A stretch of DNA of 59,637 nucleotides, counting the filler, from Circinaria calcarea (Eukaryota): NCBI GenBank assembly GCA_051942165.1. It is 11 parts of 11 records of this genome, joined end to end, with 100 filler letters (N's around TTAATTAATTAA, not from the genome) between each part and the next. Parts side by side here need not be neighbours in the genome. Positions count along the whole stretch, not along the records: positions 27,204 to 32,530 come from JAVECS010001939.1; 10 more parts are not named here. One strand, written 5' to 3'. The notes beneath the pieces were generated by a model that worked only from the letters and a program-made list of their open reading frames with translations, was not told where the DNA came from and searched no databases. Below, one piece after another: positions 949 to 58,052 of this stretch (position 1 is the first letter of the stretch; each line of letters begins with the position of its first letter). Made by a program: the position numbers and the translations under genes.

Positions 949-2246
949 ATGTACTTGCCCGACTGGCTGTATCAGTCATTCTGTTTGTCTCGGGTGTCCG
1001 GGCAACATCAATCAAATCCAGTGGCCCACACTAATAGGAGCGTCCACATTAGCAAAGAGGACCGAAGCGAAGCTTACGATGGGAAATTTGTTTTGGAGCT
1101 GCAGGCTAAGGATAAGGAGTTGCAAGAGCTTCAAAAGGAGCTGCGAGAACTTCGAAAGGCCCACCACGCGCTAATTCAGTTAAGCGACAACCAAGCCATC
1201 GAATTGACAAGTTTCACAGAACAGAGAGTCGATGAGGAGAAGGATCTACTAGTGCTCCAGACTTCCACGGATGTACTCAGGCAAGAATTGCAGGCATGCA
1301 AGGATGACTTGTTTTGCCTTCAGCCCATGCTCCAAACACCTGATACGGAGATCATACGCCAGTACGATATCGTCTGCCAGCAGGTTTCAAACTGGATCGA
1401 CGAGGAGATCTTTCAACTCGAGCAGAAGCGAACCGAGGACGAGACACACGGTATGCCTTTGGTTTTAGACGTGGACCACCCCGGAGCAATGGAGCTTCTA
1501 CAAAGAGTACCAGAAGCTGGCGAGTATATGATTGCATCCATTATTCATGCCTATCTCCAAGAAAAGGTCCTAGGGAAGCACGTGTACTGCTTTGGATTAT
1601 CCGAGGATCTCGTACGTAATTTAGAATGTATCGAGCAGGGCATGAGCAAATTGGAACCAAGGAGAGGTATAGATGCTTGTATGTATATTGTCTTGTGAGG
1701 CCAACGAGCTGATTCTGTCCAGATCTCAAAACAATTGACAATTGGCGTTCGGAAACTCTCAAGGCAATTGCTGAGCATCCAAGCTTTAATAAAGAAAGAA
1801 CGCGGGTTTTGCAGGAGCTTACTACAGATCTTCTCGAGAATCTGGGCTCCTTCTTTCCGATCCACCCGAAAAGCAATACCAGCTCAATGAGACTCTACGA
1901 ACAAGTCTTCGTACCCGCTGCGAAACTTGCATTGGAGATCCAACTATCATCAACTCATTACGAGTTTAGTCCCCGTATGCCAAGCTTTCCAACTTTGGGA
2001 TATGAGGCTGCCGTCATGGACAATCTCAAATACAATACCTTGATTGATGTCTCGACTAGGAGAAAATTGAAACCAGATAACCCAGTAATTGCTAGGAAGG
2101 ACGGAAAGATTGGGTACCCGCTATTACTATTGGAACCAAGCTTGAGTCGTGTCGATATTAGTACCAAAAGAAATCTGCGTAAGCCAGTTTTTCTTGTCGA
2201 GCTGGAGGAACCTCTTAGAAAGGGAGACCGAGGAAACGTTGGATAG
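949..2246 (+). CDS. Uncharacterised fungal coiled-coil protein, paralog 1 (exons 949-1666, 1723-2246)
   Basis: ORFs 949-1698 and 1809-2246 join in frame through a 56-nt intron 1667-1722 (GTATAG...GCTGAT...CAG), giving PRR-DLKTIDNWRSETLKA. The product is colinear with the 3533-4573 protein. Confidence 0.8.
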
Positions 2247-6550: not shown

Positions 6551-9500
6551 TTTTCTTTTCAACTTATGCATATCTTATCTTATACGACAAACGATCCTCG
6601 TGCCTTGTTTATTGCTCCGTAGTTTTGATATCTTGCCGTTGTGGGAAATCTTGTATTCTAGCCAGTCTTACGAGTATGTGAGACACGGGTTTCGAGATAT
6701 TCATATATATACTCCCTCGCGCACAGTCTCAATGCACTCTTCCTGCAGTACTTCCTTTTATTGAATTTTTGCATCCCATTCCCATGTTGGTATATCCTAT
6801 CTTCAGGTCGGTGTGTTCTATTACCAAGGCCATTGGCTTGGATAACTGGTGCTGTACCCGGTGCTGTACTCGGTGTTGTATTGGATAAGGACCGGCCTGT
6901 CGGGTTTATAAGGCTCAAGGTTCTGGAGTATCGAGACGGATGGAAATCGCGGTATGGTTGTATTTATCCCCCCACCGCTATACCAAACAACTGCTGCAAC
7001 CTCGTTCTCCGTCCTTTCGATTTCTATCTCTTGCTGCAGGGACTTCTCTTTCCATCACCTTCGTGCCCTTCCCGAATGACTTTATCCGAAATGGACCGTC
7101 ATCACCTTCCAGAGACTCCTGGATTCTCAGACATCGAGGTGATGAAGTTGTGGTATATTGCTTGGATGTATACCTAGCAAAGCTCAAAGCCCTTTAACCC
7201 GACTTCTTACTATGCCCATTCTCTTCTTATCCACGCTTTCCGTATAGAGGGAATCCCCTCGCTGGCTTATTATCTTCTCACGTGTTGAATGGTCATCCGT
7301 GCCTCAATAGGCAGTATCCCCTCTTTATAAAGGAAAGAATCGAGCTTTCCAAAGATTTCGTGATCTGGTAAGTATCAATCCGCTCAAATGTGGGCGTGGA
7401 AGTCTTTTCCCTTCCATGCATACCCTCGTTTCATGCACAGCAGTAAGCTGTTCACAAGTCTTACTCGGTGGTAAGTACACCAAGTGTCCTCACTTGTGTA
7501 GGTGTGGAAGTTTTCTCTCCTTCCATTCATACCCTGTGTTTTTACCTCTCGACACGACAGAGAGCAGTCCCACACTTCGACAGGTTTTGCTAATCCGCAG
7601 ATATAGCAATCCTCCTCATTTTAATAAGTGTGAGGTGCTCGCCTCGTCACACAGATACCTCGTTTCATAACGGCTATCTTATAGCCATCCTTTCAACGGC
7701 AACTCTTCTCGCGCTTCAGGTTTCGCGATCGTGCCAAAAGCGCTCATCTGTCAACTGCGAACACTTTAGTAAAGGGTTAGGATCATATATACCACCACTC
7801 CTCCGCCGTATGTCGAAGGGAAAGTCTCTATCTCGTCCCACCCTGGAGTCGATTTGTGCTGTGATTTCGCAAGGCAGATACTTGAAGTGCTGACCCGGTC
7901 TTATTCACCAAGGAGGTGAATTGTGGGAAGGCAAGGGGGCGAGGATTCGACCCTTTCCTTGGCAAGGTAGTTAGTATCACCAGCGAGTCTTTCTGTGCTC
8001 AGGCGCTCGGCCTCCTTCTTTCAGCGGCGAAAATGCCGTCTTCGTCCGTCAAGTTTTCGATCTTGTCAACTCAAATCGACACGTCTTATCTAAGCTGTTA
8101 GCCTCTTTTCTCATACATGACCCTCGGCAAGACGAGTTTCACTCACCACCTTAAGATGTAGTCCGACTTGAGCTTCAAGTCCACACCGGTCGATGGCCTT
8201 GCGTAATGACCCTTTTTCCTTGTGGGGTATCCTACTCCATTCCGTCTTGCTTCCCAACTTCACTGCGCCTCTCTTCTTCACGATAGGCTTTTTTTCTTCC
8301 TCTTTCTTTTCGCTTTTCGACTTGTTTCTGATTGGCAAGTCGACTCCCTTTGCTTCGCACACTCGTTCCACCTCGCGACTCGACTTCGCTTGCCATACTC
8401 TCACGTAAATCTCCGATTCCTTGACCACTCCACTCCGATTGCTTCCCACTCCTATGACTTCATGACTCCACTCCACTCCACTATGTCAGGTGCCCCATTC
8501 TCGACTCTCCTTTCTCCATCTATTTTTTGGCTTTTGATTTTCGTTTTCCTCTTCACTCCGCTCACCGAATATATTCTCGCTTCAACTCCGAATCCTTGGC
8601 CACTCTCTTCGGTTCATGTCATCTCTTCTCGCTCCATCCGTTGTTCCACCTTCACATCGACTCCCCTCTGTCCCACTTCATCTCTGTCTGGGCTTTCCGT
8701 CTTCCTTGCCACTTCAATCCGACTCACACTCCCCTTCGCCTGCTATTTCTTTTTTGCTTGTCTCTTCATCCTTCAATCTACTTCTCATTTTTGTTTTTTC
8801 TTTGGCTTGACTTCCGCTTTCATCTTTCAACTTTGCTTCCCAATCCACTTCGCTTGCTTTCACGCTTCTGTGCCATCACCCTCTACTTTGTCCCTCGCAG
8901 TGCTTGTTGTTCCATTTCCCTGATTACCCTGGCTCTCTCGCCACTCCACTTGTCCACTTACTTCTTAGTCCACATGTTTATCTCTATTTGTTTATTTTGA
9001 TTTACTTCCCTCGTCATGCTCTTTTTATCTTTGTTACTTTTTAAACTGTGTTTCCGTTTGCCCTTTTTTTGGCTTTTCCGTTTGCCCCTTGTTTCCTCCC
9101 TTTAAGCTCGGGAATCTTCCATTTCTCTTTTCTCTTTTCCCTTTTTGGTTTTTTATTGTTATTATTTTTTTATTTTTTTTCTTTTGGAGGGGATTCTTCT
9201 TAAAATGTTCGATCTCTTACTCACAATATCCTGCCGTATTGTACTGACCGTAAAGTCCCTCGCCATCACCTCCAGACCGCCATACACCATACCATCCACC
9301 AAACCCTCATCCCAGACCCTTCCCTCACCAGACATCCATCGTTTCTCTCGCAAAAACCTTTCCCAGACAACTCTCTCCTCTCCTATCTTGATGACAAATC
9401 AGTACACAAAGCAAGCAGTAAATCCTCCAGCTCATAAAGGGCAGCAGTGGTTACTTACCGGCGGTCAAGAGTTGCATCAAGGTTTCGTAGGCACGTTTGC

Positions 9501-12028: not shown

Positions 12029-13940
12029 ATGTACTTCCCCCAGTATGCCCTACTACACGTTCTCACACTTGCCCTGGCCTACTTTACAATCCAAAGATAC
12101 CTACGGAATGGTAAACGCTTTCAGATTCCTCGCATTGGCAGGAAATCCGGCCGCTTCGGGACCGTGGCAGCAAGGGCGGACTTTCTCAAAAATGGCCATC
12201 GTCTGATAGGGGAAGGCTATCGTCGAGTATGATCGGCATGTTTCCCCCTCAGCAGTCCACTGAGCGACCTAACAAATGTGTTCAACCGGCCAGTTCAAAG
12301 AGTCCGCGTTTGTCATCCAGACGGCCGATATGGAACGCGTGGTTCTATCGAACAAGTACCTCGAAGAGCTTCGTGCCCTCCCCGAGGATGAGCTTAGTCT
12401 GAGGATTGCCATGGCCGAAAGACACCTTGGCCCATATACGACGCTTGACATGATCAAAGAAAGCCATTTGCAAAACACCATTTGCCGGGTCCAATTGACG
12501 CAGAACCTAGGTGCTTGCAAGGCATTGTGACCTCTTGCTGATGGCCTGGTTTAACGGTTATTCAGGGCGCTCAATGGATAGCATGCATGATGAGGTTCAG
12601 TACGCACTGGAAAGGGAGCTGGGGACATGCGCCATCAGCTGTAAGGCATCAGGAACCCTCGGACCAGACAGGCTTGTTTCTTGCACTGACTAATCGGCTC
12701 ATCAGCGTGGAGCTCTTACAACGGATATAGCATCCTCTTGAATGTTGTTTCCAGGTCGATAGCACGGGTGTTTGTTGGACTGCCGCTGTGCCGTAATCAA
12801 GAGTGGTTAGAGACGTCCGTTGGATACACCCAAGAAGTATTCCAGGTTGCCGCCGCTCTGCGAGATCGCCATTGGATCCTTCGGCCCATCCTGTACCCCT
12901 TTTTAGCATCCCGCAAGAGACTGAAACACCGCCTCCAAGTTGCAGAGAGCCATATTTTCCCCTTGATCCAGAGTCGCCTTGAGTGTGCAGCGGACGAAGC
13001 GCCTTCGGATCTTCTGCAATGGATGATCAACGCTGCTGAGGGTGACGACCGGGCGCCGGCGAAGCACCTCCAGAAGTTGCTCTTTCTCTGTATGGCCTCC
13101 ATCCACACGAGCACTGCAACTCTTTGCCATGCACTCTTCGATATCTGCGCGATGCCTACGGTTCTCGTGCCGCTTAGGGAAGAGATTCTCGGTGCGATGC
13201 AGGAAGGCCATGGCCTCACCCTGGCCGCAATCAACACTATGCCACTTTTAGATAGCTTCCTCAAGGAATCCCAGCGCCTCAACCATCCCGGCTCTCGTGA
13301 GTAGTCCCATTGCCCCCCGCGCGCCATCTCCCCTTTTGCGGCCCCTTATGAAGGGCCCTATGAAGGGGAAAATTGTGAGAACATGGGCAAGCTAAATCGG
13401 GCCTCGGGCAGTCTCGTTCAATCGCAAGGTTCTGAAGGACCGGACCCTCTCCGACGGCACTTTTCTCCCCGCCGGTACCTTCATCGCCATGCCCACCGCC
13501 GCCATCGCCCGAGATCCCGCCTACTTTTCCGAACCCGACGAGTTCCGTCCATGGCGTTTTGCTAATCTACGGCGATCATCACCGACAGAAGCCGCCCGTC
13601 ACCAATTCACAAGGTAAGCCAAATTCCTCACCCCTCCCCCCCCCCTTGCATATAGAAGCCCAACCTTTTCAGAGACGGGCCCGGAGAGCTGACCGGTTGG
13701 ATCCGTTCTGGGGCTTGCAGCACCGGCGCCTCGAGCTTGGCCTTTGGACACGGCCGATTCTCGTGCCCCGGGAGGTTTTTCGCCGCCGCTCAGATTAAGC
13801 TCTTGCTGGCGCGCCTACTCGTCGATTTCAACGTGTCGTACCCCGAGGGGCAAGCACAGAGGCCGGCGAACCTTTATATCGACGAGCGCATTGCTCCCGA
13901 CCAACGTCAAGTTCTTCGCTTCCGCCGGCTCGAAAAGTGA
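12029..13940 (+). CDS. Cytochrome P450 monooxygenase, ent-kaurene oxidase/PaxP-like (CYP54 clan), 6 exons, 500 aa
   Basis: Exons 12029-12226, 12294-12510, 12566-12640, 12706-13296, 13412-13613 and 13721-13940 splice in frame via GT-AG introns (1503 nt). Contains an N-terminal TM anchor, ARVFVGLPLCRN.EW, I-helix ASIHTS, ESQR (ExxR), FRPWRF and haem motif FGHGRFSCPG. Confidence 0.93.
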
Positions 13941-18058: not shown

Positions 18059-19860
18059 ATGGATAGCTACGAGGCCATGCCCTTGCCATATATGGGAAGC
18101 CCCATGTCGTTACATGATGTGACCGCTGCCGAATATCTGGACAGCTGCATGCCGTCGTACAGCTTCCAAGATCAGACTCGCTCTTATAGCGGTGGGGATG
18201 TTCTCGGGTGAGTAAAGCGGTCTTTACCGTCCCCCCTCCCAACGACTGCCCGGTACGCTGGGCTAATATGCCTTCTTGTTATAGCGAAGACGACATGGCC
18301 TTTATTTCGCCCTCTACCTTCAATGATGACAGCAGTATGAGCCGGGAACATTCATTTTCAAAAGCCATTGAAGATTGTTTTGCCGATACCCAAGGGCACT
18401 TGGAGAGTCCCGTACAAGACGCATCATCCCCAGAGGCGCCCTCGATAGAGCATGGGAATAAGATGCTCAGCTTCCTATTCCCATCGTACCACTGCTCGAT
18501 TCTCGACTCCTCCAGACGTCAGACTTCATTATCACTCACCGCACAGCTACATGGCATGTTCTTCTTAGCCGAGTCCTCGCGAGCTGGCTCGGGCGATGGC
18601 ATGATGCCTCCGGTCGAATTGACCTGCTATCGACGGAATCTCTTTCAAATCACCGGCTGCATCACACTGCCCCAGATGATGCGGTATGTTCTGACCGAGC
18701 AAGGCGACCAGATTCCAATCCTTGCTCAGGAACTATCCATCTCGGCCACCGAGTCCGTCGAAGGCCATCCCATTAAGATTATCTCTGTGCCTTGGAAAAC
18801 CCCGGCCGCTGGAACATCAGCATCCACACCCGAAGACAAGACCGAAAAGGAGCCGGCTTCTATCTCCTTACAGAAGATGGATCACTTTACGGACGGCGAT
18901 TATGCCAAGTTCCCTATCGAGTGGAAAAGGCTGCAGTTCAGGGTAGCAACAGCTAACAACGGACGAAGAAAGGAGTTACAACAACACTTTACTATCAAGT
19001 TGAGCGTCAACGTAACGCTTGCGACCGGTGATAAGGTGACCGTCTGTGAAGCCTTGTCGGGCCCAATCATCGTACGTGGGCGTAGTCCACGGAACTTTCA
19101 AACGCGCCGGGACTATCCTCTCAGCGGCACCGGAGGCTCAATGCGAAAAGCAATGCAATCTTCCAGCTCACGGCAACGTACTGCTTCCCCTGAACACCTA
19201 GTGCGCCGACCATCCTCAAAGTCAAAGGCTAGCCCTACAGTGTCCACCTATTCGACACAATCCTCACCTCACCTCAGTCAGTCCCCCCACGTCCGCCAGA
19301 CAGGTGGGGATTTCGACTGGAGCGGCACCCCTACCGGCCTGACCAGTACCATCCAGACGCCTATTGTGACCCGGACCTCCAAAGCCCCAGATTTCCTCCT
19401 CGACCACCACACATCCAGTCCTGAACCGTCTAATGGTCGCCGGCCTGCGTTGAAACGAAAGGCTTCCACCCCTGATCCAGCTGGCAACATCTCCTACTCG
19501 AATTACGAGACTTCATTATACAAAAGAGCGGCATCCGCCGAACGAGCCCACTCTCTCAAAACCGTAAAGCCCAGCCGTACCCTTACCGCACCCAGCGAAT
19601 CGCTATTTCTCCCGTTCAACTCATCCAACGACTATCCGGGTTTTTCTCACAGCAACAGCTATATGCCAGCAGGTGACATGTCCAATGTCGATATCGTGAA
19701 CAAATATTTCCCGGTTGGGGTGGAAGACTGGATGCCTCCAGTTGAGTCCATTTACAAGCACCAAGGTTTTCAGCATATGAATCAACCATCGATGATGGCT
19801 GTCGGCGAGATTGGCGGCCGACGCGGTCACAAACGATACATGAGCGACGGTCTCATATGA
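18059..19860 (+). CDS. xprG: NDT80/PhoG (p53-like) transcription factor, XprG/VIB-1 type; exons 18059-18207, 18285-19860, about 574 aa
   Basis: AQLHGMFFLAE, LTCYRRNLFQITG, WKRLQFRVATANNGRRKELQQHF and IIVRGRSPRNF. Upstream exon MDSYEAMPLPYMGSP joins in frame via intron 18208-18284 (GTGAGT...GCTAAT...TAG). Confidence 0.9.
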
Positions 19861-27103: not shown

Positions 27104-27203
27104 NNNNNNNNNNNNNNNNNNNNNNNNNNNNNNNNNNNNNNNNNNNNTTAATTAATTAANNNNNNNNNNNNNNNNNNNNNNNNNNNNNNNNNNNNNNNNN
27201 NNN
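27104..27203. other. Artificial contig linker
   Basis: 44 N + TTAATTAATTAA + 44 N. Confidence 0.98.
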
Positions 27204-27826: not shown

Positions 27827-27869
27827 TTAGATTTGCGGTCGATGTGGATCGAACACATGGCCTTCAGAT

Positions 27870-27887
27870 ATTCATGTCTGAAGTGAA
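27870..27887 (-). other. Canonical tRNA intron (18 nt) at position 37/38
   Basis: TTCACTTCAGACATGAAT lies one base 3' of the GAA anticodon; its CTTCAG can pair with CTGAAG of the anticodon loop. Confidence 0.9.
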
Positions 27888-27904
27888 CTTCAGTCTGACG
27901 CTCT

Positions 27905-27961
27905 CTAACCCAATCAGATTAGCGTTAACTCCAATGATGTGATGCTTTAATAATGTCATAC
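27905..27961 (-). other. 57-nt spliceosomal-type intron in the tRNA D-loop (position 20/21)
   Basis: GTATGACATTATTAAAGCATCACATCATTGGAGTTAACGCTAATCTGATTGGGTTAG: donor GTATGA, branch GCTAAT (27923-27918), acceptor TAG. Precise excision restores the standard D-loop AGTTGGGA. Confidence 0.8.
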
Positions 27962-28411
27962 CCCAACTGAGCTACGCCCGCAAGTTTTTGGGTACTTAAT
28001 AATACTCGATGAGAAATGTTTTACTATAGAAATATATATTGCTATTTAACAGCGAGCACCGATTAGTCTTTATAAATCCAATAGCAAATCTTGAATTCGA
28101 GATAGGAGCACACTCTTCTGTAGCAAGATTTCCTTACAGTGGAGACCGATGTATATTAAACTTCTATAACGGTAACAATATATGTTTTGTCTACGATCTA
28201 CAGTGAGCCATTTCAGACCACTTTTTTAATTACTTCAAATACAGGTTTTATATTCTTGTGGTCAATCAATAATGTTTTTAACTTGCCTCTCCAACAGGTC
28301 TCTTACTGTTTGGTTTACTCACCACATATCATATACTCTATGATGAGGCTTTGTGTACAAGATACATGACTTGCCGCTCTTATCAGATTCATCAATCGAA
28401 TAACAGCCCTT

Positions 28412-29942: not shown

Positions 29943-31678
29943 ATGGCATTTTTACCTTTTTCCAATGATCTATCTGTGTCTTCATCTGAAGACAGGATAG
30001 TAAAGCTCTTCGCAGAGTTTCAAAATGCAATGCGGGAAGAAGAGCAAAGGATGGCCAGCAAGGCTCAGGACTGGGAGACTCGTAGCGTAAAGCTAGTAAA
30101 CCTGCAATCGAGCCTGATATCTCAGAAGCAAGCATTGGATGAGAGGGAGAAAGCTTTAATCAACCGTATTAATCAGGTGGATGAGCTGGATAAAGCTCGT
30201 GTTGAAAAGGGTTCAGAACAAATGCAGGAACGACTCTGTATCGAAGCAGATCAGAAAATGCTGATGAGGGCTTATTTGGTCCTGCAAGGAATCCTTGGGC
30301 TTACCAGTAAACCCGAGGATTTGCAAGTAACGCCTGAAAATGTTTCAAATTCACTAAGGACCCTCGCTGATACGGTTAAAAACGAGATGGACGAGCTTAA
30401 GAAGGCAAAAGCCCAAGCCGATAGCCTCGCCACGCTGCTACAGCGTGATCAGGAGCGACAATCACAAAATATCCATGCTCTCGAGGCCAATCTCCAAGAA
30501 ACCACGACACAAATGCAGGAGCTCCAGTTAGTCCATACTAAATTGCAACAAGAAAACAGGAGCATGCTTGAGCAACTGAAGATTGCCGGTACCAGAAACC
30601 TGGAGTCGGCGTCTAATCGTGAAACTATTGAGGATGCGACACGTGCCCTAACTACTGTAGACGAAAACCGTTCTACATTGACTCAAAGTTCACTGGACAA
30701 CATGGGATGTTCAAGTAACCAGGTAATCGAGTTTGGAGAAGGAAGCACGCATAGCAGACAGGCTGCCCAAATAAACACCTTCTCGACCGGATATGCCGAG
30801 TGGGCGAATCCGGGTACAGATCTAAGTCCATTTTCTCTTACTGGTCGTGCTTTGCTACACCAACGAAAGAGACGTCGCTTATCAACCTCTATAGCTAGCG
30901 ATGCCGACGATTCTGACAGAGATTGGAACACTCGACAGAGACACCTTGACGTCAAGGAAGAGTTGCCTACTCGACCACCGTCTTTTTTGCAACCTGAAAC
31001 CCTCCAGTGCCGATCTTCGATAGATCATGTCGAGGAGTTCATCGGAGCACCCTTTGAGAATGAAGCTGGAGAACTACAGGGGTTCATCACTAGCAACAAG
31101 CCTCAGTAGAACAGTTGGCAGCAACGAAAGCAGAAAACGAGACTGCACTCGAGGAACCAGGTCCTTCCGAGTGTTCTAATGCTAACGAGTCTACATCAAT
31201 AGATGTAACAGTTGCAAAACGAGGAACTGATGGTTTATTCCGTAATGCTGATTATCCAAATTACATCTCTTTACATCCGTCGGATAAGTATCAAATTGAT
31301 CAATTTGGGGACAGTTCCCTCAATCCAAATGATTTAGGGCGCGAAGTTAATGACACCATCCGAGTCTATATGGATCAATGGGACCAACAAAACATTTCTT
31401 GGAAATCTATTGGTGAGAGGAGTCGGGAGGCAATATGCCTCAACGAGGCTGTCAACAATCGGACGCCGAGATGGGAGGAGTCATGCCGCCGAAAAAACGT
31501 TGCTTGCCTCGGGTGTCGGGAAGCATATCGCATTTGTGTGGCAGTAATGCCAATGGGGCACTTCATACGACTATTGCCTTATAGTAGTGGGTTACGTTAC
31601 ACGCCCCCGGAGAGTCCCCCGTCTCAGAGTGATCTGGCATACTGGATTAGGGACCCATCACCAAGGAGCAGGCAATGA
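29943..31678 (+). CDS. Uncharacterised coiled-coil protein with Cys-containing C-terminal domain, split into ORFs 29943-31109 and 31115-31678
   Basis: 388-aa E/Q/L/K-rich ORF with basic patch QRKRRRL, followed after 5 nt by an ATG-less 187-aa ORF in another frame (ICLN...ACLGCREAYRICV...DLAYW). Confidence 0.6.
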
Positions 31679-32530
31679 AGTTGCAGCAGCACGCCATCAT
31701 ACACAAGCAGCCTAATCTTTCCCGCCGACTAAACTGCTATCGATCTTGCAGAACAGACATGGCAGTTGCTACACTCACAATCAACAGCAAAGGATCGCCC
31801 TCGCGACTGCAGAAAAGTCCCTTTACCTCCGTTGCACAACTTGGCTTATCGAGGATTTCCGGGAGGAGTGCTTTATCTTTGACTTTTGAGCCCACGAGAG
31901 ATCGAACGGGAAGTTGTTGGCATCGTCCGGAGGGTACATGGACGAGTTGGAACCAACACAAGCGGCTTTTGGCAAGAAGGCGAAAATTGGGGAAGGTGGG
32001 CAGATCCCCTGGAACGATTTGCGTTGACGGAGTTCCGATGTCTCCACGAGTTTAGTCCGTAACCGCGTCGACGCCAGATGCGATTCGACCTGTGAACCAA
32101 CCCCCCCCGGCCAGGTGTCGGCGTGCGAGGCGTGCCGAGAACAGAGAACCGGATCTGCGTACAATTGACGTATGACGAGGCGGAGGATGGGCCGAACGGG
32201 GTCGTATTCGACCGTTTGCCGTATTGGGGGGGGGGTTTGCTTTCCATAGTTCGAAGTCTTTGGTAACAGGGGCTCCGACTCGGGTTATCGGTGGGGAAAG
32301 AAGTATGGGTATTGCTCTAAAAAAAAAAAACTCTACCGGAAGGCAAGGGATAGGAGGTAAAGGGGATAGGAAAATGTATGACGCCGCCCGATTTAAAGGG
32401 GAAATTTTTTTTTTAATTAAAAATCCAATTCATTCCCAACCCATGGTTTTCTGAAATGAACCCCTCCCCATCCATATAACGCCGTACGCATGCATCCCTT
32501 TCCCTCGTCCCTCGTGTCACCGTGACAGAC

Positions 32531-33790: not shown

Positions 33791-34039
33791 ACGAGGCTCT
33801 CCTAGTTGTATTACCGTTGGTAGCATAGTGGCACAATGATAGGTGCGTTTTCGCGATCGACGCAGGGTTAAGCGAAGGTGCGTATCTTAAGCGATAAAGA
33901 TTTTAGCGCTTCGCCTAACGTTTGCGGAGATCTTAAAAAGATTCCTGAAAACGCACCCATAGAAAAACTCGACGCGCTGTCTCCTACATCCCGATTTCAC
34001 ATGTTCGACGCCGCCTTGTGCTTGAAAATCTTTGATAGC

Positions 34040-36960
34040 CGCATTCGATGGATTTCTCCATACTATGATCAGAGGCACCGCCGTCAACGCGAATGGCCGC
34101 ATCGGAGAGACCACACGTCCCAGCGTCGTTGGACAGGAAGCCGTCATCCGCAAGGCCTACGAAAATGCTGGCAACCTTCTGTTTTCCAGTACGACTTTTT
34201 CGAGTGCCAGGGTATGGGCACTCAGGCCGGTGACCATATCGAGGTGTCGGCGGTACGCAATCTTGTTCGTATCTTCTAGGTCGGACCCCCTCAAGACCGC
34301 ATGCTCATTGGGTCGATCAAGACCAACCTGGGACACACGGAAGGCGCGAGCGCGATTGCATCCATCATGAAGATTGTTCTCTCCTTGGAGGCGGGAGAAG
34401 TTTCTCCGAGCTACGGCGTCGAGACACTGATTCTGAAAATCGACTTTGAGGGGGCCAAGGTCGAGGTCGTGAGAGACCGCACTGTGCTCCGGCCAGAGGG
34501 GCAAAGTGCGGCGCGTAAGCATTACCATAACTCTTTTGGTTTTGGCGTTGCTAGACACTGTATAATTGACCACGTCAATATCGTACTTCCGCATCACGTG
34601 AAGCCTGGCATTGTTAAGAATCCATCTTTCGACGGACTGGGCCTCCCCAGCGGCCACAAAACCAATGGCTATACCAATGGACACCAGAATGGAATTACAC
34701 CACCACCAGCGCCGCTGCGTCTTCCCGCCGTCCATACACCCAAAAAGATTACAAGAGCCGAGGCAACCAACCGTCAACTGGTGCTGCTACCTTTCTCAGC
34801 CAATAGCGGGTCCTCGCTCAAGCTGAATATCCACGCCTTGTCCCGTGCGATTGATTTGTGGTTGATCGGTGGCAGATATTGCCTACACGCTCGGGCCCAA
34901 GCGCGCCAGTTTACAGCAACGATCTTTCCGCATCGTGGATAAGGACGATGCTGCGCAAGGGCTGGGCGTCGATAGGTCTATCTTCGTTAGCCCCATACAG
35001 AGTCCCAACATCGGCTTCATCTTCACAGGCTAGTGTACCCAGTGGCGCGCTATGGGCGCGCAGCTATTTGAGTATCGCGTGTTTCAAATTGCTATCGCGT
35101 ACTTGAACCACGTCTTTGGAGCACTGCCCACAAGCCCTTCGTGGATAAATTTTCTGGCGAATGTGATGCAGACTGTATATACGCCGTCCAAATTGACCTT
35201 ATCGATTTTCTGGCCTCGTCCGTCTGGCCTTCCGCTGTCGCTGGACATTCCTCGGGTGAGATGGCCGTAGCCAATGCATGGGGCCACATCAAAGCCGCCG
35301 AAACTATTTCGGCCGCTTATTTCCACGGCCAGGTAGTATCGCAAAATAAGTAGAAGGGTGTTATGCTGGCCGTGGGTCTGGTTCCCGAGCAGGTGTCCGA
35401 GTAACTCAATGGCCGGGAAAAGGAAATCAAGGTGGCGGCATCAATTCGCCGGAGGTGCTTCCGTAATCTTGGACAAAGAGGAAATTTTCAACCGAGTGCT
35501 TCGCACGGCCGGAAACGATTTTAATTCGCATCACATGGCTCTACTCGGCCACGACTACAGCAACATGCTCTTCAGTAGGCTTTCGCATATCAAGAAGCTT
35601 GAACTGGTCGACGGGCGACAGCGTTATGCCCGTGCCTCATGGGTGTCGTTGGTAACTCTACACGAAGCTATCCCTGAAGATATGTCAGTGGCATACTGGA
35701 GAGCCAATCTTGAGTCACCAGTTCGATTCTTCGAAGCGATAACGAATATGGTGGGCTTGGAAGGTAGCCCGGTGGATGTTCTTATTAAAGTTGCACCACA
35801 TCCTGCCTTAACGAGCCCCCTGGACCAGGTATTGAAAAGCATTGGCTAATCTATCCCTTATACTTCGTCATTAAAAAGGCCCGAAGATGGTTGGGAACTG
35901 ATGTTGCAGCTTGCCGGGTCCTTATTAGGCCTGAATGTCGAGATTAACTTGGTTACAGTCAACGTGGTCGACGATGATGTATATAAGGCCGAGTTCTGCT
36001 ACCTATATAGCTGCACCACCGTTGACCTCCCACTATATCAATATACATATGGACTTGTAAATCACTATGAGGGCCGGGCGAGCAAGGAATACCGACTTCG
36101 GAAAATTATTAAACACGATTTTCTTGGCTCTAAGGTCCCAGGCACCCTAAAGCTCTCGACTTAGTCGGAACGTCCTCTGGGTGAAAGACGTGCACCTTTT
36201 ACTAACTCCCAGATGCCGTCTTTCCTGCTGCTGGATTCATGTCCATGGTAATAGCAGTTACCTCACAGTTTTATTACCAGCTTCCAGAGTCATTGGAAAT
36301 CATAGACCACTCGCTTCGCAACGTAGATATCAAAACGGTCTTGAGGTTACAGGAAGATAATACGGCATCGCAGTTATGTACGGCATGGAACTTATGGTCA
36401 CGGTGACCGCCAGGTCACCCGCATGGGCTAGTTTCGCCATCAGTTCGGTTGCGCGAGACTCGAATGAGTGGACCGAACACTACGCCGACCTCGCAAAGTC
36501 TCTGAACCGGCGGAGCCGGATAAGATAGGCACTGATTTGGATTCTAGATTCCCAGACTTGCGCTCGTGGTAGAAAAAGTTTGAGGCGATCGGTATTGGCT
36601 ATGGCCCAATACCCCAGCAGCTCTCGAGATCCGTGCCGATCTCGACAGGAACATATTCACGGCTAAGGTGGCATCGAATACAACCGTGGGTACCATCGAA
36701 GGAGGAGAGTCGAGCTATCCCCTGCAACCGGCTGCTCTGGAGGCCACCTTCCAGCTGGGACTCATTGCTTGCCACAGAGGCCAGGTGGAGAGGGCGAGCA
36801 CTGCGTTCGTGCCTATCAACCTGTCCCAGCTGTATCTCAAAGAAGGATTCGACCAACATTAGGGCACGGCTATCGCTCGCGGAAGGCTTCAAGGTCTTCG
36901 AGGTGCCTATACTAAGCTGCAGATATTGAGTAAGAGTGGCGATGTGGTTCTTGACCTAGA
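34040..36960 (+). pseudogene. Reducing type I polyketide synthase relic (partial KS, AT, DH)
   Basis: KS: IRGTAVNANGR, GQEAVIRKAY, ECQGMGTQAGDHIE, IGSIKTNLGHTEGASAIASIMK, NSFGFG. AT: GFIFTG*..QW..MG, GHSSGE, FNSHHM, YWRANLESPVRF. DH: HDFLGS, VFPAAG, YPLQPAALEATFQL. Many frameshifts and stops; both ends missing. Confidence 0.92.
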
Positions 36961-46774: not shown

Positions 46775-48799
46775 ATGGCAGCATCTGCTCCGACGCCATC
46801 AGCAACCCTCGATGAAGCCTTTGAGAAATTGAGGCAGTCTGTCAGCTCTGTTGACGCTACCAATTTTCAATCTACGACGCTCCAAGATGTCTGGAACGCG
46901 GCTCGGGACATCGAGCGTGTTCAAAGAGAAAGACTATCAGCTCGAAACTTACGGCGTATTGAACCATTCCTACGTACGCTCGAACAATACTCGAAGTCCG
47001 TTGAGGTTCTAGCCAATGGAACGCCATTTTTGCCATGGATATGGGTTGGTGTCCTGTTGATGTCTTGTTCACTTCCTGATTCGCGCCTGCTGATCAACTT
47101 GTGTAGGCACCAATCAAGCTGATGCTCCAGGTAATCACGTTGTTGTAGAGGGAGCATTGAGGCTTCAGATAGCAATACTGAACTGTCGACTAGCTCGCGA
47201 GCAATTATGCAGATGTCTTTGATAGACTAGTCACTGCGTATGTGCAAATATCGGAAAACTTACCGCGCCTCGATCGATTTGAAAAAGTGTTTCCAAAGAA
47301 CATTGAATTCCAAAACGTTCTGGCTCTTGTGTATGCTGATATCCTCGAGTTCCACCGGCGTGCATACAAGTTCTTCCGTCGACGTGGTACGTTGTCCGTC
47401 ACTTGTCCTTATTCTTTATCGGCTGCATTGATCGCGTTATAGCGTGGCATATTGTCTTCGACTCGTTGTGGAAGGATTTCGGCACTCGCTTTAACGGTAT
47501 CCTCGATAGTCTAGCCAGGCATAGGGACTTGGTCGATAAGGAGGCACTGTCGATTGAAATTGCGGAAGCAAGGAGTTGGCGCATACAGGCGCAGCAGAAT
47601 CTTGAGCACCGCGAGAAAGAGAGACAACTTTCCCAGCTGCAAAATTCAATCGCATGGCTAGCTGTAGAAGATCGTATCCTGGAAGATGATCTTCATAGGT
47701 TATCACAGCGGCGGCAGCCGGGTACCTGTGATTGGGTCCTAGGTAGCTCTAAGTTGATAGCATGGGTAGCTGATGACTACGAAGAGCCAATCTTGTGGCT
47801 TAGAGGCATCCCAGGAGCTGGTATGGCTTCCGTCAGACACCTCCCTTCTATGAAGAGAAGCTCTGATCAGCAACAGGAAAAAGCGTATTGTGCTCTCATA
47901 TCATACACTTCCTTACAAGTCGGCAAGATATGACAGTAGCTTATTTTTTCTGCAATAGTTACAGTGACGGTGGAGATCGTTGCAGCCAAATTCTAAGAGC
48001 GCTTGCACTTCAACTGTTGAGAGCTCACCTGGACTTAGCACCCTACGTTTGTGATAACTATGCGAACCGGGGCCGTAACCCTTCAATGCCACAGCTAAGG
48101 AGACTGATCCCAGCTCTCTTAGCAACTATCCCGTTAACGCGGATAGTAATTGATGGACTCGATGAATGCCAAGAGAAAGATCAGAGGCAGATCTTACAGG
48201 AGCTAATGTCTCTATGCACTCCATCTGGAGTACGGTGTAAGATTTTACTATCAAGCAGAGAAGGTGTGCATCTCAGCAGAGCATTACGCCGGAAGCCCAA
48301 TATATCATTGACAGAAAGGAGAGTCGACGTCGACACAGACATACGGTTATTCGTGGCACACAACCTTACGGAACTGCGAGAAAGATTCGACGGTAAAGTT
48401 GTAGATGGCATCGAGAAGAGAGTGGTCAAGAAAGCGGATGGGATGTTTTTATGGGTTCGCCTTGTTATTGCAACATTACATGACCGTCACAGTATCCAGG
48501 AACTTCAGAATGCTATGGATGAGCTTCCCGAAGGATTGAATGAAGCGTAAGCCGAGCAACACCAGCCGATTTTTCTGCCAAGGCTGACTTTTGACAGATA
48601 TGGCCGAATACTTGATTCCATTAGCAAAGAGCTTAGTGCTCATAGCCGGGATAAGGCCATCCGTATTTTGGAATGGATGGCTTGCTCGTGTCGTACATTG
48701 AAGATCTGGGAGATTCAAGACGGAATTGTGTTTCACCCAGGGTGTACCATACTAAACGGCGCGACGAAGCTAGACAAAGGAATCTTGGATCGATGCAGG
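46775..48799 (+). CDS. NACHT-domain (fungal NLR-like STAND) protein with helical N-terminal domain; 3' end off-contig
   Basis: RNLRRIEPFL, PFLPWIW|APIKLMLQ|LAS, YADILEFHRRAYKFF, GTCDW, Walker A LWLRGIPGAG|KSVLCS, AYFFC, Walker B IVIDGLDEC, KADGMFLWVRLV, LPEGLNEA|YGRIL. Exons join via canonical introns. Confidence 0.92.
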
Positions 48800-48899
48800 N
48801 NNNNNNNNNNNNNNNNNNNNNNNNNNNNNNNNNNNNNNNNNNNTTAATTAATTAANNNNNNNNNNNNNNNNNNNNNNNNNNNNNNNNNNNNNNNNNNNN
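48800..48899. other. Artificial contig linker
   Basis: 44 N + TTAATTAATTAA + 44 N. Confidence 0.98.
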
Positions 48900-49453
48900 A
48901 CTTAGAAGGACCGATATAAAATTAATAGAATAAATTCCTATCGGAGGCCAATTTATATAAAATATTTATATATTTACGTAATATATTAGAACTCCAACGG
49001 AAAAAAACGTGATTATTATATCGATTATATTAATTTACTTGGGTATAAATGAAGATGAATTATCGGATTAATAAAATAAGACGTTAAAGTTACCAAGTCG
49101 TTATTCTATCTCCTAAAATAATAACGCGTGGAATTTGGACTCATGAGTTCTCGCGTCCACATAGACGATAGCCTAAGGGTTTATATATCAGCCTTCAACA
49201 TTCACCAGAGGCAATCAGGATATGGAAGGGGGGAGTAACTACAGTCGGGGACATTGGCCATGTCGACTGACCCTTTGTGAGTGGTCGAGGGAATATCTTG
49301 TTCTGAGAACTTAGTGTAGAAACACACAAGCACTCTTGAAAACTACCACTACTGTGAGTTTCGTGAGTGAATAATAGCTTAGCGAAATGTGTACATGAGA
49401 CCAAAGGGAAAAAGTATCTGAAACAATGTGACATCCACTAAATATTCAATTCA

Positions 49454-52400
49454 TCACTCACAGCCATCATCCGCTAACACTTCAGTCTGCCTCTGCTTCG
49501 CCTCATGTACCAACCGCATTGCCGTATGAAAGCCCACTTCGTATATGCGTTTATGCGCCGGCGTGGTTGTCTCCGCGACAGTATTGGGATCTGCTCCGAG
49601 TTCCAGCAATGTTTCCACCATATTCACCTTTCCAAACTTTACTGCTGCCAGTAAAGGCGTCTCACCTTTCCGGTCTTTAATCTCCATTCTGGCTCCTTTC
49701 GAGATCAGAAGACGCGTTATAATCGATTGGTATCTTGAGTCTACATGAGAGGCTACGATGTGTAAAGCAGTTCCGCCACCACCCTTAAGAGCTGTATTAG
49801 GGTTCGCTCCGTTGGCTAGCAGTAGTCGTACAGTAGCTTCATGGCTCCTTTGAACGGCCTCTATCAGCGGTGTGCCAAAAGAGCTTTCATCGTGCTCGAT
49901 ATTCGCTCCCATATCGATAAGTAACTGAACAGTTGCCGACTGTCCGCTTTCCCCAGCAACGCAAAGTGCTGTCTCGTGATACTCGTTTTGCGCCTCAATA
50001 TCAGCCCCATAGTCCAGCAGAATTCTCACAATCCCCGTGTGTCCGTTACCCGCTGCTCGATGCAGAGCCATATCACCTTCATAAGATTTCGCTTCAAGGT
50101 CGGCACCCATGTCGATGAATAATCTCGTAACAGCCTCATCACCTTCAGTCACCGGATGATGTAGCAGCAGGAATCTCCTGAGATCCTCAGACTGCAATGC
50201 TTTGAGTTTCAAGACTAGCTGACTGATGTCCTTCATATTTTCGTCCTTAGTTTCTTCATCGTCCTTAGTTTCTTCATGGTCCTTAGACTCTTCATTGTCG
50301 TTAGTCTCCTCATCGTCCTTGTGTGAGTATGGCGTCATCGCATGATAAAGTTGGGCCATGACGAGTAACCCTTCCCGCATGGTTGCGGAATAATCAGATG
50401 TCAACAATATACGCACCACGCTCAAGTGTCCATTGAGTACAGCCCATTCTAGTGAGGTTCTGCTGCAGTTATAATCTTTAGCCGTAGTGTCAGCTCCATA
50501 ACGTAGTAGATGAGGTATCAGTCTTGCGTTCCCTCGCATTGCTGCTGTTATCAGAGCCGGTTCACGATTCCCTCCATACACGTTGACATCAGCACCTCGT
50601 TCAAGTAAGAGTAGCACCGTTTGTTCTCCGTTGTCGGCGTTGGACCAAGAGTTGTCTATAGCCGTGTGTAGGGGCCGGTTCCCAATTTCGTTTACAGCCT
50701 CGATATTAGCACCGTTATCCAACAGCAGTCTTGTTGCTTCTGCGTGACCACCACATGAAGCCTCATGCAATGGTGTGTCTCCCCGCTCTATTGTCTCGTT
50801 GACATCGGCTCCATACTCCAAGAGCAGCTCCACTATGACAAGGTGGCTACTGCCACTCGCCACAGCAAGTGCCTCCCCAGCAGAGTGACGCATTACGTTT
50901 GGTTCAAGACTTCTCCCCTCTTCTAAAAATAAACGAACACACCCTTCTTGGCCAGAACTTGAGGCTCCGATAAGTGCAGAACCCAAACACATTGTTCTGG
51001 CCTCGAGATCCGTAATGTTTTCTAAGATTTTCCGAACTACCCCAGAATGTCCCCTCCAAGCCGCGCTCCTCGTGGCGATTTCCATGGACTCTAACGTGGT
51101 CTTTCCCTTAAGCATTAATTCTACGATCAGCTCATACCCGGCTGCTGCCGCCGAGCACAACGCATCCTATCCATCACCATCCTTCAAATTAAGGTTAGCT
51201 CCTTTATCAAAAAAAAGTCGGACGATACTCGCATGGCCATTAGCAGATGCTATATATAATATTATCCAATTTGCAAAATCTCTGGCGTGGACATCAACTC
51301 CCTGTTCCAAAAGCGTTTGAGCCAAATTTTGGAATCCAAAAGTTGCTGCTACATGTAATTCTGTAAAATTGATCGGAGAAGGCTCGAAGACTCGAAATCC
51401 ACCTCCTTCGATGTTTCCTCCAAGGTAGAATGCAGCTTCTATTGAACAAGAAACGTTGGCCTTCCGGCTGAGGAATTGAGTGACGACCCCATTAGTCGTA
51501 GGATCGTGCTTGAGAGCTTCACGGGCATGGCTTCCCCAGTGCTCAGCGGCATAACTTAGGAGTGTGTTTTTCTTTAATCGCTGTCTAAAAAAAGGCCCTC
51601 CATTGATATTATCATAGTAGGGTTCGATTAGGTCATAGCAAGGTCCACTCGAAAAAGTCTGGAAGGATAGATAAATGATGCAAACATCTGTTATGTATCT
51701 TTGGGCGGACGGGAAATCCGTATGACTAGTTCGTTCAAAATACTCTTGCGTAATATAATAGATTAAGCGAACAATATTCCTGTTCGTATCAACGACGATT
51801 AGGCCATAATATGCGGAAAATAACAAGTCTGAATCCGGCAGCGCTTCTTCGACCAGATCGCTGTCCTTAGATTCTATAGCTATAGCGCATCTAAACTCCT
51901 TAATGGTCATCGGCCTTTAGGCGAATATCACCTAGGAGAGAACTTAAATTACGTATTCAATATTAGCACGTCCTTGGCTACGAATTCTGAGCATAGTATT
52001 ATCATATGTTTCGTCGATTCCTTCTGGTAGAGCTTCAAGCGTCCTATGAAGGCCGCGTCGGCTGTTCTCTTGCGATAATGAGGTTATGTATAGTTCCGCT
52101 AGCAGGAACCTGATAATATAATAATTATTAAATAATAATAAGAAAATTATTACAGCAATGACATACATTCCTCGAGTTTTATTAACAATAATATTTATAA
52201 TAATATCTCGTAATAACGGGTCCGCCGCTATATGTCTTGATAATAAAGCCTGCTTTTTAATCTTCCCGTAAAGATAATATTGTATATCTTTTTTATGTGC
52301 GTAAATTTCCAGACGGGCAGTACCTTTAAAGGTCCGTTCAATAAAAATATAAGGTCGAGAAATGATTAATAGATATATATTTATTAGGAGATTCTAAAGC

Positions 52401-55830: not shown

Positions 55831-58052
55831 ATGGCTCCGCAACATCAGAGTTTATTGCAGTTCAGCGAACGACAGACCACATCTTCATCGGCCCTGGAAA
55901 CGAGCGTAGCATCACGGGAAAGATCGCATAGGCCGTGGTTGTCGATAATCATTTCCCAAGTGCTAGGACTTCTATGGCTGGCTCCGATCACTTACTTGTT
56001 GTACATCAACTTCACAGAGCACACTACAGGTGCCAGCATTGGGTGTCGAGGATGCGCCCTGAACCAGCTCAGCGACGATGCTTTTGAGAGGGCGCAGAAA
56101 CTCGATAGGGACGATCACAATGCACTTGGGGCACTTCTATTTGTAGCTAAGACTTTGGAGGTATGGTTCGTGTTCGTTGCTACGAGCTTGGTCTACAACG
56201 TGGCAATGATGCTTGCATCGAGAGCTGATGGTCTCCCCATTGGTTACCTAATGGCACATCTGGAGTTTACGGACCTTCGGAGCTTGATCGACCCGCGTCT
56301 TTGGGCTACACCTCGTCCATCTGCAAGGACAATCGTCAAAAAGCATAAGCTGATAGTCAAACTGTACCTATTTGCCGTCTTCGTGGCCTTCATGTGTATC
56401 CTGGCCAACCTCATGGGGCCCGCCGCCGCCGTACTCGTGCTACCGACTTTGCAATACAAGGACACAACCCATCAGTCTATAGAGCAATTCCACCAAATCG
56501 GCTTGTCCACCCCTCCTATGGGTGCCTGGGCGAGTCCACAGTGTAGTAGGGCCGCGCTTGAGGCTCGCAACTATTGCTGCACCTTAAATGTATCCGCAAC
56601 CAACATTGACAGTTGGGTACGTCTGCAGCCACCGTAGCTGAACAAGAAACTAAACAAGAACAGCTATCCGCATATAACGATTACAGTCTGTATGAACATC
56701 TCTCGGAGGAGATGGGTGTTACATTTCTGTTCAACTACTCGACAAGCGGCAACCACTCGAACGGAATGCTATGGGCTCCCAACCGCCAAGTCTTGCGAGA
56801 CCTCTCAAAGGACCTCACAGAGTACTTCAACACTACTCAGGGCGATCCATCTTACGATAATGAAGTGTACGCAAAAACCTACAACAGTTCCCTACAAACT
56901 TTCCTGAAGCGAACAGGCCCCATTATCGGCGCTGAGGTAAATTTTTATTGGTCATCTAATAGTGCAAGGGTCACAAATATTTCCCAAGACCGAACTATCA
57001 GATGCTATGATAGTTGGGAGCAGAACGATACAGGGGTTTACACTAAGTGTATACGTGTTGGCAAGGGCTGGAACGCAAACAATACTGAATCCAATTTCTC
57101 CGTTCGCAATGCCACTTCCTCTGGCACAGACGCTTCCGTCAATGTATACTTCTCAGATAAGGTAACATACTTGAACGAATCGGTCAACAATGATTCGACA
57201 ACGCTCGCCTGCTTAGTAGATGGCCCAGCACCCTCTGATGTTAGTTGCGACTGGGACAAAATATTCAGTCCCTCGAACTTACCTTCCGAAATACGCAATT
57301 GGACGACCAGCGTTACGACCCAGGAATTATTATCATCAACAGCGCCAGGCGCATTACTCTTTGAGTACTATACGTACACCGCGTTTCCAGTCTATTCCCT
57401 CGACACCTCTCCGACCTCTAATGCTCTTGGACTGGTCCAAGTAGATAATCTTAACAATCTTATTTCAGACCAACCTGTCGTGGTTAACACTGATTGGATT
57501 CTTGCTGCCTGGTCCGTCGATCAGAACGGCCAACTGCACCAAGATCGGGTATCAACAATCACGTTAGTACGGGAACTTAATGCCTTTCTCGGCCCTGACT
57601 CTTCCGATCTGGAAACCCCAAACTTGTTTCCTTTGGTTGTTTATTCGTTCTTTCAAACTCTATCTATGGTTAATTACTCGAATTTTACTACTTTCGATCC
57701 CGCTGCACCAATCAACACTGACCCAAATCACCCAACACTGATCCGCTACGCCACCATCCGCGTCTGGACTTACGGACTCAATAGCCGAACTTCACGGTTG
57801 GGTGTCGCAGTGGCGATTGCTGGTGGGCTCTGTGTGCTGATTCGAACCTTGCTTGCCCTTGCTACGGGTATACAGCAGCGCTCAACCGTGGAACTCGTTG
57901 TCGCCGCCATTGAACACGAACCTACTCGTGAATTCGATGGACTAGGCGATAAGGAGAGCGAGATGGCTAGAGTCAGGTTTCAGATGAAGGAGGTGGATGG
58001 GAAGTTTCAGTACTTTCCGGCGTCGGGACTAACCGGTGGAGTCAAGAGATGA
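55831..58052 (+). CDS. Uncharacterised fungal multi-pass membrane glycoprotein (probable intron 56617-56663; about 724 aa)
   Basis: N-terminal hydrophobic segments (including LMGPAAAVLVLP), long domain rich in N-x-S/T sequons, C-terminal TM after YG. A 47-nt GTACGT...ACTAAAC...CAG intron joins the two ORFs in frame. Confidence 0.75.

Follow-up and report, generated by a model that had tools for sequence, protein, structure and literature searches.

Organization of the tRNA-Phe Locus

The window, i.e., the whole 59.6-kb stretch of DNA analyzed here, carries on its minus strand (27981..27834) a tRNA-Phe(GAA) gene in which three exons and two interruptions make up a unit of 148 nt (Table 1). This arrangement, with successive segments of 20, 57, 17, 18, and 36 nt, bears out a preliminary description of the DNA that had placed a tRNA-Phe in three pieces at 27834..27981. 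The signals reported there for the longer insert, namely a GTATGA start, a GCTAAT motif 14 nt from the end and a terminal TAG, were likewise recovered by direct reading, and the A of this motif that would serve as branch point is located at position 27919. The insert is 65% A+T, and its longest T run is 2. Open frames of at least 100 codons were absent around the gene, between 27152 and 29050.

The A box TAGCTCAGTTGG is contained entirely within exon 1, the B box GTTCGATCC is intact in the T arm of exon 3, and two T7 runs, which look like candidate Pol III terminators, follow the gene, the nearer one 8 nt downstream. These Pol III signals are the ones expected of a functional tRNA-Phe(GAA) gene, and their arrangement, together with the short T runs of the insert, verified what had been stated earlier about an A box upstream of the insert, an intact B box and T7 run, and an insert with no T run longer than 2.

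The textbook view assigns tRNA introns to cleavage by a protein endonuclease and mRNA introns to removal by the spliceosome, and a tRNA intron requires no GT, branch motif or AG. The 18-nt interruption has the features of a canonical tRNA intron, as it is positioned at 37/38 and contains the sequence CTTCAG, complementary to the anticodon-loop CTGAAG, whereas the 57-nt insert at 20/21 lacks these features. The 18-nt intron had been placed slightly differently in the preliminary description, with a cut that gives U37; ARAGORN puts it one base further 3′, giving G37 as expected, and this placement was adopted.

Table 1. Features of the tRNA-Phe gene and mRNA introns used for comparison, with positions in the window.
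Feature	Position	Strand	Description
tRNA-Phe exon 1 (positions 1-20)	27981-27962	-	20 nt; acceptor 5′ strand, U8 A9, D-stem 5′ strand, D-loop AGTTGGG
D-loop insert, G20/A21	27961-27905	-	57 nt; GTATGA, GCTAAT, TAG
tRNA-Phe exon 2 (positions 21-37)	27904-27888	-	17 nt; A21, D-stem 3′ strand, G26, anticodon stem 5′ strand, loop CTGAAG (anticodon GAA, G37)
Canonical tRNA intron at 37/38, TTCACTTCAGACATGAAT	27887-27870	-	18 nt; ARAGORN
tRNA-Phe exon 3 (positions 38-73)	27869-27834	-	36 nt; anticodon stem 3′ strand, variable loop AGGCC, T arm with B box, acceptor 3′ strand (A68 opposite G5), discriminator A73
Two T7 runs	27826-27820 and 27817-27811	-	First starts 8 nt past tRNA 3′ end; read directly
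mRNA intron	1679-1722	+	Open-frame junction
mRNA intron	12227-12293	+	Open-frame junction; donor GTATGA, same hexamer as insert
mRNA intron	18208-18284	+	Open-frame junction; branch GCTAAT
mRNA intron	48547-48597	+	Open-frame junction
mRNA intron	56617-56663	+	Open-frame junction
mRNA intron	43776-43722	-	Open-frame junction; also fits tblastn alignments of SNF2-family homologues
mRNA intron	23417-23357	-	Open-frame junction; branch GCTAAT, shares GCTAATCTGAT with insert

In Silico Excision of the Insert Restores a tRNA-Phe(GAA)

In the native DNA of the window, the tRNA-Phe gene was invisible to ARAGORN whether the intron option was on or off, and Rfam returned no tRNA at gathering score in the whole window and none at E ≤ 1 in the segment 27600-28200, as had been anticipated for standard scanners. 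When the 57 nt were cut out by script, ARAGORN called a tRNA-Phe(GAA) with an 18-nt intron at 37/38, and when both inserts were cut out, it called a tRNA-Phe of 73 nt. Excision exactly at the GT/AG ends brings together G20 and A21, the bases flanking the 57-nt insert, and restores the D-loop AGTTGGGA. This junction is ambiguous by one base, since a GG..TA register yields an identical product; the GT..AG register is preferred because it alone has a canonical pair of ends.

The results showed that the spliced product forms 20 of its 21 stem pairs, the sole exception being a G5·A68 mismatch in the acceptor stem, and that it carries U8, A14, G18, G19, G20, A21, U33, the anticodon G34 A35 A36, and G37, followed in the T arm and 3′ end by GTTC (T54 T55 C56), A58, C61, and A73, so that every conserved loop base checked is present. 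The Phe identity set in yeast consists of G20, G34, A35, A36, and A73, and the cloverleaf with its Phe identity bases after intron removal is as expected of a functional tRNA-Phe(GAA). The 73-nt tRNA foreseen in the preliminary description was thus obtained, by ARAGORN call as well as by pairing, with an acceptor-stem mismatch that had gone unmentioned there. If the 57-nt insert were retained, it would part G18 and G19 from what remains of the D arm, and the RNA would therefore be incompatible with a working tRNA.

The G5·A68 mismatch could be a mark of relaxed selection, and on its account the window's gene may be a pseudogene: an intron-like or arbitrary segment of 57 nt would have inactivated one of several tRNA-Phe copies, would not be removed, and would sit in a copy that is decaying. 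This is the main rival to the proposal that the gene is processed by both the spliceosome and the tRNA endonuclease, and we give it a real but minor chance. The failure of ARAGORN and Rfam to see a tRNA in the native DNA suits a dead copy as well. Against it, no damage was seen in the conserved loop bases, the other stem pairs, the A and B boxes, the anticodon-paired 37/38 intron or the terminator.

The Insert Compared With Local mRNA Introns

A comparison set of seven mRNA introns was collected at junctions of long open frames by screening 15 junction zones and keeping the unambiguous choices. These introns are 44-77 nt long, a range that includes the 57 nt of the insert. Their donors are GTATGT, GTAAGC, GTGAGT (in two introns), GTATGA, GTACGT, and GTAAGT, with G at +5 in 7/7, and all end in CAG or TAG, the insert ending in TAG. 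CTRAY is the consensus of the branch site; the branch motifs found were GCTAAT (twice), CTGAC, CTGAT, and CTAAC, and a CTRAY within the 8-30-nt window was missing from two of the seven introns. The insert itself combines the U2-type features of a GT start with G at +5, a CTRAY branch (GCTAAT), a YAG end and a local intron size. It has the donor hexamer of one local intron and shares with another the 11-nt branch region GCTAATCTGAT, which was its only notable match elsewhere in the window. The claim that the size and signals of the insert match those of the window's mRNA introns was therefore upheld, with the proviso that the likeness to the seven introns is partly circular because the set was picked partly by generic splice-signal ranking.

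Eight other junction candidates had odd donors or were ambiguous and were dropped (51223-51167, 44975-44914, 21143/21116-21066, 47821-47939, 31029-31114, 31629-31756, 8900-8968, and 7498-7654). A broad finder of introns at open-frame junctions gave thousands of candidates and was set aside.

The frequency with which such a signal set arises by chance was determined by requiring together a GT start, G at +5, a YAG end, and a CTRAY placed 8-30 nt before that end. The full set occurred in 6 of the 116,040 57-mers of the window, both strands included, and in 11 of 300,000 shuffles of the insert, i.e., at a rate of ~5 in 100,000, with the tRNA exons dictating where the segment begins and stops. A random insert in a dead gene would have the full signal set only at this rate, which argues against that explanation. 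The host of the insert differs from that of U2-type introns, which are features of Pol II transcripts, as it is a tRNA gene with an A box, a B box and a T7 terminator. A Pol II host is not obligatory for spliceosomal introns, however, as the U6 and rRNA introns described in PMC5855946 illustrate.

On the minus strand, the sequence TTGGG occurs twice about the insert, once closing exon 1 (27962-27966) and again at 27909-27913, four bases before the insert's 3′ end. This pair may be the trace of an insertion event, or chance. As an insertion scar, it could be accommodated by a dead gene, and as a direct repeat near both ends, it could also point to a mobile intron-like element, i.e., a copy of a proliferating introner-like element or miniature transposon that brought splice signals with it and is either spliced from a Pol III transcript or not. 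Introner-like elements exist in some ascomycetes. This origin nevertheless appears very unlikely here, as the second TTGGG stops 4 nt short of the insert's 3′ end and is hence off the junction, and 57 nt is an ordinary intron size. In addition, whether the insert occurs elsewhere as a repeat had been raised in the preliminary description, and no second copy was found within the 59.6-kb window, in which the best other match was the 11 nt of the branch region.

Fold Around the D-Loop Insert

Introns at sites outside 37/38, including the D-loop, are found in tRNA genes of archaea, Cyanidioschyzon merolae and nucleomorphs, where a bulge-helix-bulge fold is cut by the tRNA endonuclease. By analogy with these lineages, the 57-nt insert could be a non-canonical tRNA intron whose bulge-helix-bulge-like fold lets the tRNA splicing endonuclease cut it, its GT..AG ends being incidental. 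A bulge-helix-bulge geometry, in which two 3-nt bulges with the cut sites are set apart by a 4-bp helix and have helices on their outer sides, was searched for in both orientations and in all nearby registers, and no convincing example was found around the D-loop insert. The best candidate was a formal four-pair central helix, AGTT:GGTT, that can be drawn beside the D stem with 3-nt bulges; it is made of 3 G·U pairs plus 1 Watson-Crick pair, 1/3 pairs form in the inner helix, and the cuts would be asymmetric in the bulges. The minimum-free-energy fold of the precursor was no better than that of shuffles (z = -1.0), and no equivalent bulge-helix-bulge was found in the two D-loop introns of the other fungus described below. 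An endonuclease-cut D-loop intron would also leave the branch motif and the match to local mRNA introns unexplained, and we consider it scarcely credible for this gene.

Interrupted tRNA-Phe Genes in Another Fungus

Metagenome contigs were scanned with a pattern of tRNA-Phe exon motifs that allowed a 42-72-nt gap in the D-loop. The scan gave 6 loci, four of which (L001-L004) represent one 3,370-bp locus that shows 0 differences among four assemblies and is carried on contigs of 32-774 kb. The remaining two, L005 and L006, were rejected as matches, being partial or tandem bacterial-type tRNAs. L006 (1-1927) is a bacterial-type cluster of eight tRNA genes in which a partial tRNA-like copy just upstream of the tRNA-Phe caused the spurious match. 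In parallel, control scans with a shorter pattern were run on viral contigs and prokaryote genome contigs; these gave 2 viral and 4 prokaryote loci, and 6/6 proved to be ordinary tRNAs of bacteria or phages, uninterrupted or in tandem. The window's organism was absent from the metagenome, viral and prokaryote contigs scanned.

At positions 1501-1870 of L001 (and equally of L002-L004), two tRNA-Phe genes stand in tandem, and both have one intron in the D-loop and another at 37/38. The D-loop introns are 57 and 58 nt long, have the form GTTAGT..CTAAC..YAG and are inserted between G18 and G19, and GT/AG excision yields the D-loop AGTTGGGA in these genes also. The A box is intact in the L001 DNA because the first G of the intron completes it; thus the window's gene and the L001 genes both keep the A box in the DNA, and their D-loop introns contain no T run of at least 4. 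The recurrence of this architecture on long contigs from four separate metagenome assemblies speaks against the possibility of an assembly artefact or a chimeric join inside the window's tRNA gene. Such an error would not be expected to place donor, branch and acceptor in register with the tRNA exons either, and we rate it the least probable of the explanations considered.

The tandem copies of L001 are identical at 73/73 exon positions, while their D-loop introns are identical at 43/58 (about 74%), their 37/38 introns at 14/19 and the 120 nt upstream at 62/120. Within the D-loop introns, the first 14 bases agree at 13/14, and both copies preserve GTTAGT, CTAAC, and YAG. By our own arithmetic, zero changes in 73 exon bases at ~26% intron divergence has a probability near 3e-10. 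Given this exon identity against the divergence of the introns, the interrupted genes are under purifying selection in that fungus. The pattern is the one expected of functional interrupted genes that lose the intron by way of its splice signals. Clear purifying selection on comparable interrupted tRNA-Phe genes also weighs against reading the window's gene as a dead copy.

The neighbor of the L001 genes encodes Vps26, ~80% identical to Eurotiomycete proteins, and contains an mRNA intron that starts with GTATGG and carries GCTAAC. The nearest counterparts of the window's proteins are those of Lecanoromycetes and other lichen fungi: its NDT80-like protein shares 55% identity with an Agyrium rufum protein and 86-87% with proteins in public assemblies, and the polyketide-synthase matches come from lichen assemblies. 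The window's gene is nuclear and belongs to a fungus of the Pezizomycotina, probably a Lecanoromycete that forms lichens, and given the Eurotiomycete-like Vps26 of the one locus and the Lecanoromycete-like proteins of the other, the two fungi belong to different classes of Pezizomycotina. Their mature tRNA-Phe sequences differ at 16 positions, 15 of them in stems, with pairing maintained except at 5:68, and their 37/38 introns are similar. The window's insert and the L001 D-loop introns, on the other hand, are similar at background level only (32/57 and 35/58 in gapped alignment), and their insertion sites are 2 nt apart (20/21 in the window, 18/19 in L001). The two D-loop introns look like separate gains, or like an old intron that moved. 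Given the shifted site and the undetectable similarity, L001 supports the phenomenon rather than the particular insertion in the window.

A tRNA Gene That May Require Two Splicing Pathways

On balance, we favor with modest confidence a working tRNA-Phe(GAA) gene that would require both the spliceosome and the tRNA endonuclease. The anatomy of the gene, the match of its signals to those of local mRNA introns, the cloverleaf restored by excision and the selected interrupted tRNA-Phe genes of the other fungus are direct observations, and from sequence we infer in addition transcription, spliceosomal removal of the insert and function for the window's copy. Pol III would transcribe the entire 148-nt unit from the intact A and B boxes and stop at the T7 run. 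The spliceosome would then excise the 57-nt D-loop intron by means of GTATGA, the GCTAAT branch (A27919) and TAG, so that G20 is joined to A21, and the tRNA splicing endonuclease and ligase would take out the 18-nt intron at 37/38; we infer this order of steps. The preliminary description had proposed that one pre-tRNA may need both the spliceosome and SEN, and the proposal gained from the mRNA-intron signals, the D-loop restored by a cut exactly at GT/AG, the intact Pol III signals, the negative bulge-helix-bulge search and the L001 parallel, while the G5·A68 mismatch still leaves room for a pseudogene. Taking the two fungi together, we also lean, a little less firmly, toward the broader view that a class of tRNA genes in Pezizomycotina, including tRNA-Phe, has acquired true spliceosomal introns more than once, at D-loop positions that differ between lineages (18/19 and 20/21), with the A box intact in the DNA and precursors that would have to pass through both pathways.

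A spliceosomal intron in an RNA gene that is not transcribed by Pol II would be of a known kind; what appears to be new is its putative occurrence in a tRNA gene that also bears a canonical tRNA intron. Spliceosomal introns are described in PMC5855946 for the fungal genes for U6 (a Pol III transcript), U1, U2, U5, and rRNA, with up to four introns per U6 gene and several gains (for U6 introns, see also Tani and Ohshima, 1989, 1991; Canzler et al., 2016, cited therein). Lichen rDNA has spliceosomal introns as well, which are spliced out of Pol I transcripts in yeast, as reported in PMC8527467 (for ascomycete rDNA introns, see also Bhattacharya et al., 2000, cited there and in PMC5855946). In the passages on such introns in PMC5855946, tRNA does not appear, and the word tRNA has 0 occurrences in PMC8527467. 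A full-text literature search, with a coverage that leaves out most subscription journals, found no account of spliceosomal introns in tRNA genes, in agreement with the earlier statement that no such report was known.

The closest likeness is to fungal U6, a Pol III-transcribed non-coding RNA gene with short introns that have a canonical 5′ splice site, branch site and 3′ splice site, are otherwise unconserved, vary in position among fungi and have apparently been gained repeatedly. In contrast to the tRNA, U6 is in the spliceosome's catalytic core, which is the usual argument for intron gain by reverse splicing; the tRNA-Phe transcript would, moreover, also depend on the tRNA endonuclease and ligase. 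Experiments have demonstrated that U6 introns are spliced, whereas the window's tRNA-Phe intron is known from its sequence. The rDNA introns of ascomycetes and lichens are comparable in being mRNA-type introns of a structural RNA gene that is not transcribed by Pol II, in the same broad fungal group, but rRNA is a Pol I transcript of several kilobases, while tRNA-Phe is a Pol III product of 73 nt with a fold that the intron would disrupt. With the canonical 37/38 introns handled by SEN endonuclease and tRNA ligase, the gene has in common an anticodon-paired 18-nt intron of exactly this kind; the 57-nt insert differs from them in its 20/21 site, in having no anticodon-intron helix, and in having GT, a branch motif and AG. 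The bulge-helix-bulge tRNA introns resemble it in lying outside 37/38, also in the D-loop, and in that several may occur in one tRNA gene, but the archaeal, Cyanidioschyzon and nucleomorph introns are defined by the very fold for which the search around the window's insert came out negative.

If the reading is correct, tRNA would be added to U6, other snRNAs, and rRNA as one of the few transcripts not made by Pol II that have spliceosomal introns, and because tRNA has no obvious contact with the spliceosome, such introns would bear on the origin of new introns. Translation capacity would then depend on spliceosome activity, and in slow-growing lichen fungi the supply of tRNA would be tied to splicing capacity. 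Counts of fungal tRNA genes would also be too low, given that such genes would be hidden from ARAGORN and Rfam, as the window's gene is in its native DNA.

Other Features of the Window

At 33959-36155 on the plus strand, there is a polyketide-synthase-like gene with KS and AT domains, in which tblastn alignments with four homologues show frame changes at ~34848-34912, 35138-35144, and 35437-35460. The gene is either split by very short introns or decaying, and since the frame changes came without clear introns, it was dropped as an intron source. The region 47340-51916 contains NACHT-type (NPHP3_N) and ankyrin-repeat open frames on opposite strands, as is typical of fungal NLR-like genes. A single in-frame stop lies between its ankyrin frames 51916-51167 and 51166-49454 and could be removed with a 57-nt GT..AG segment at 51223-51167 that contains GCTAAC and has an unusual donor, GTCCGA. 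Pairs of 44-base N runs recur through the window every ~5.4 kb (20 runs; e.g., 27104-27147 and 27160-27203) and look like masking rather than gaps; one such pair is ~630 bases from the tRNA-Phe gene.
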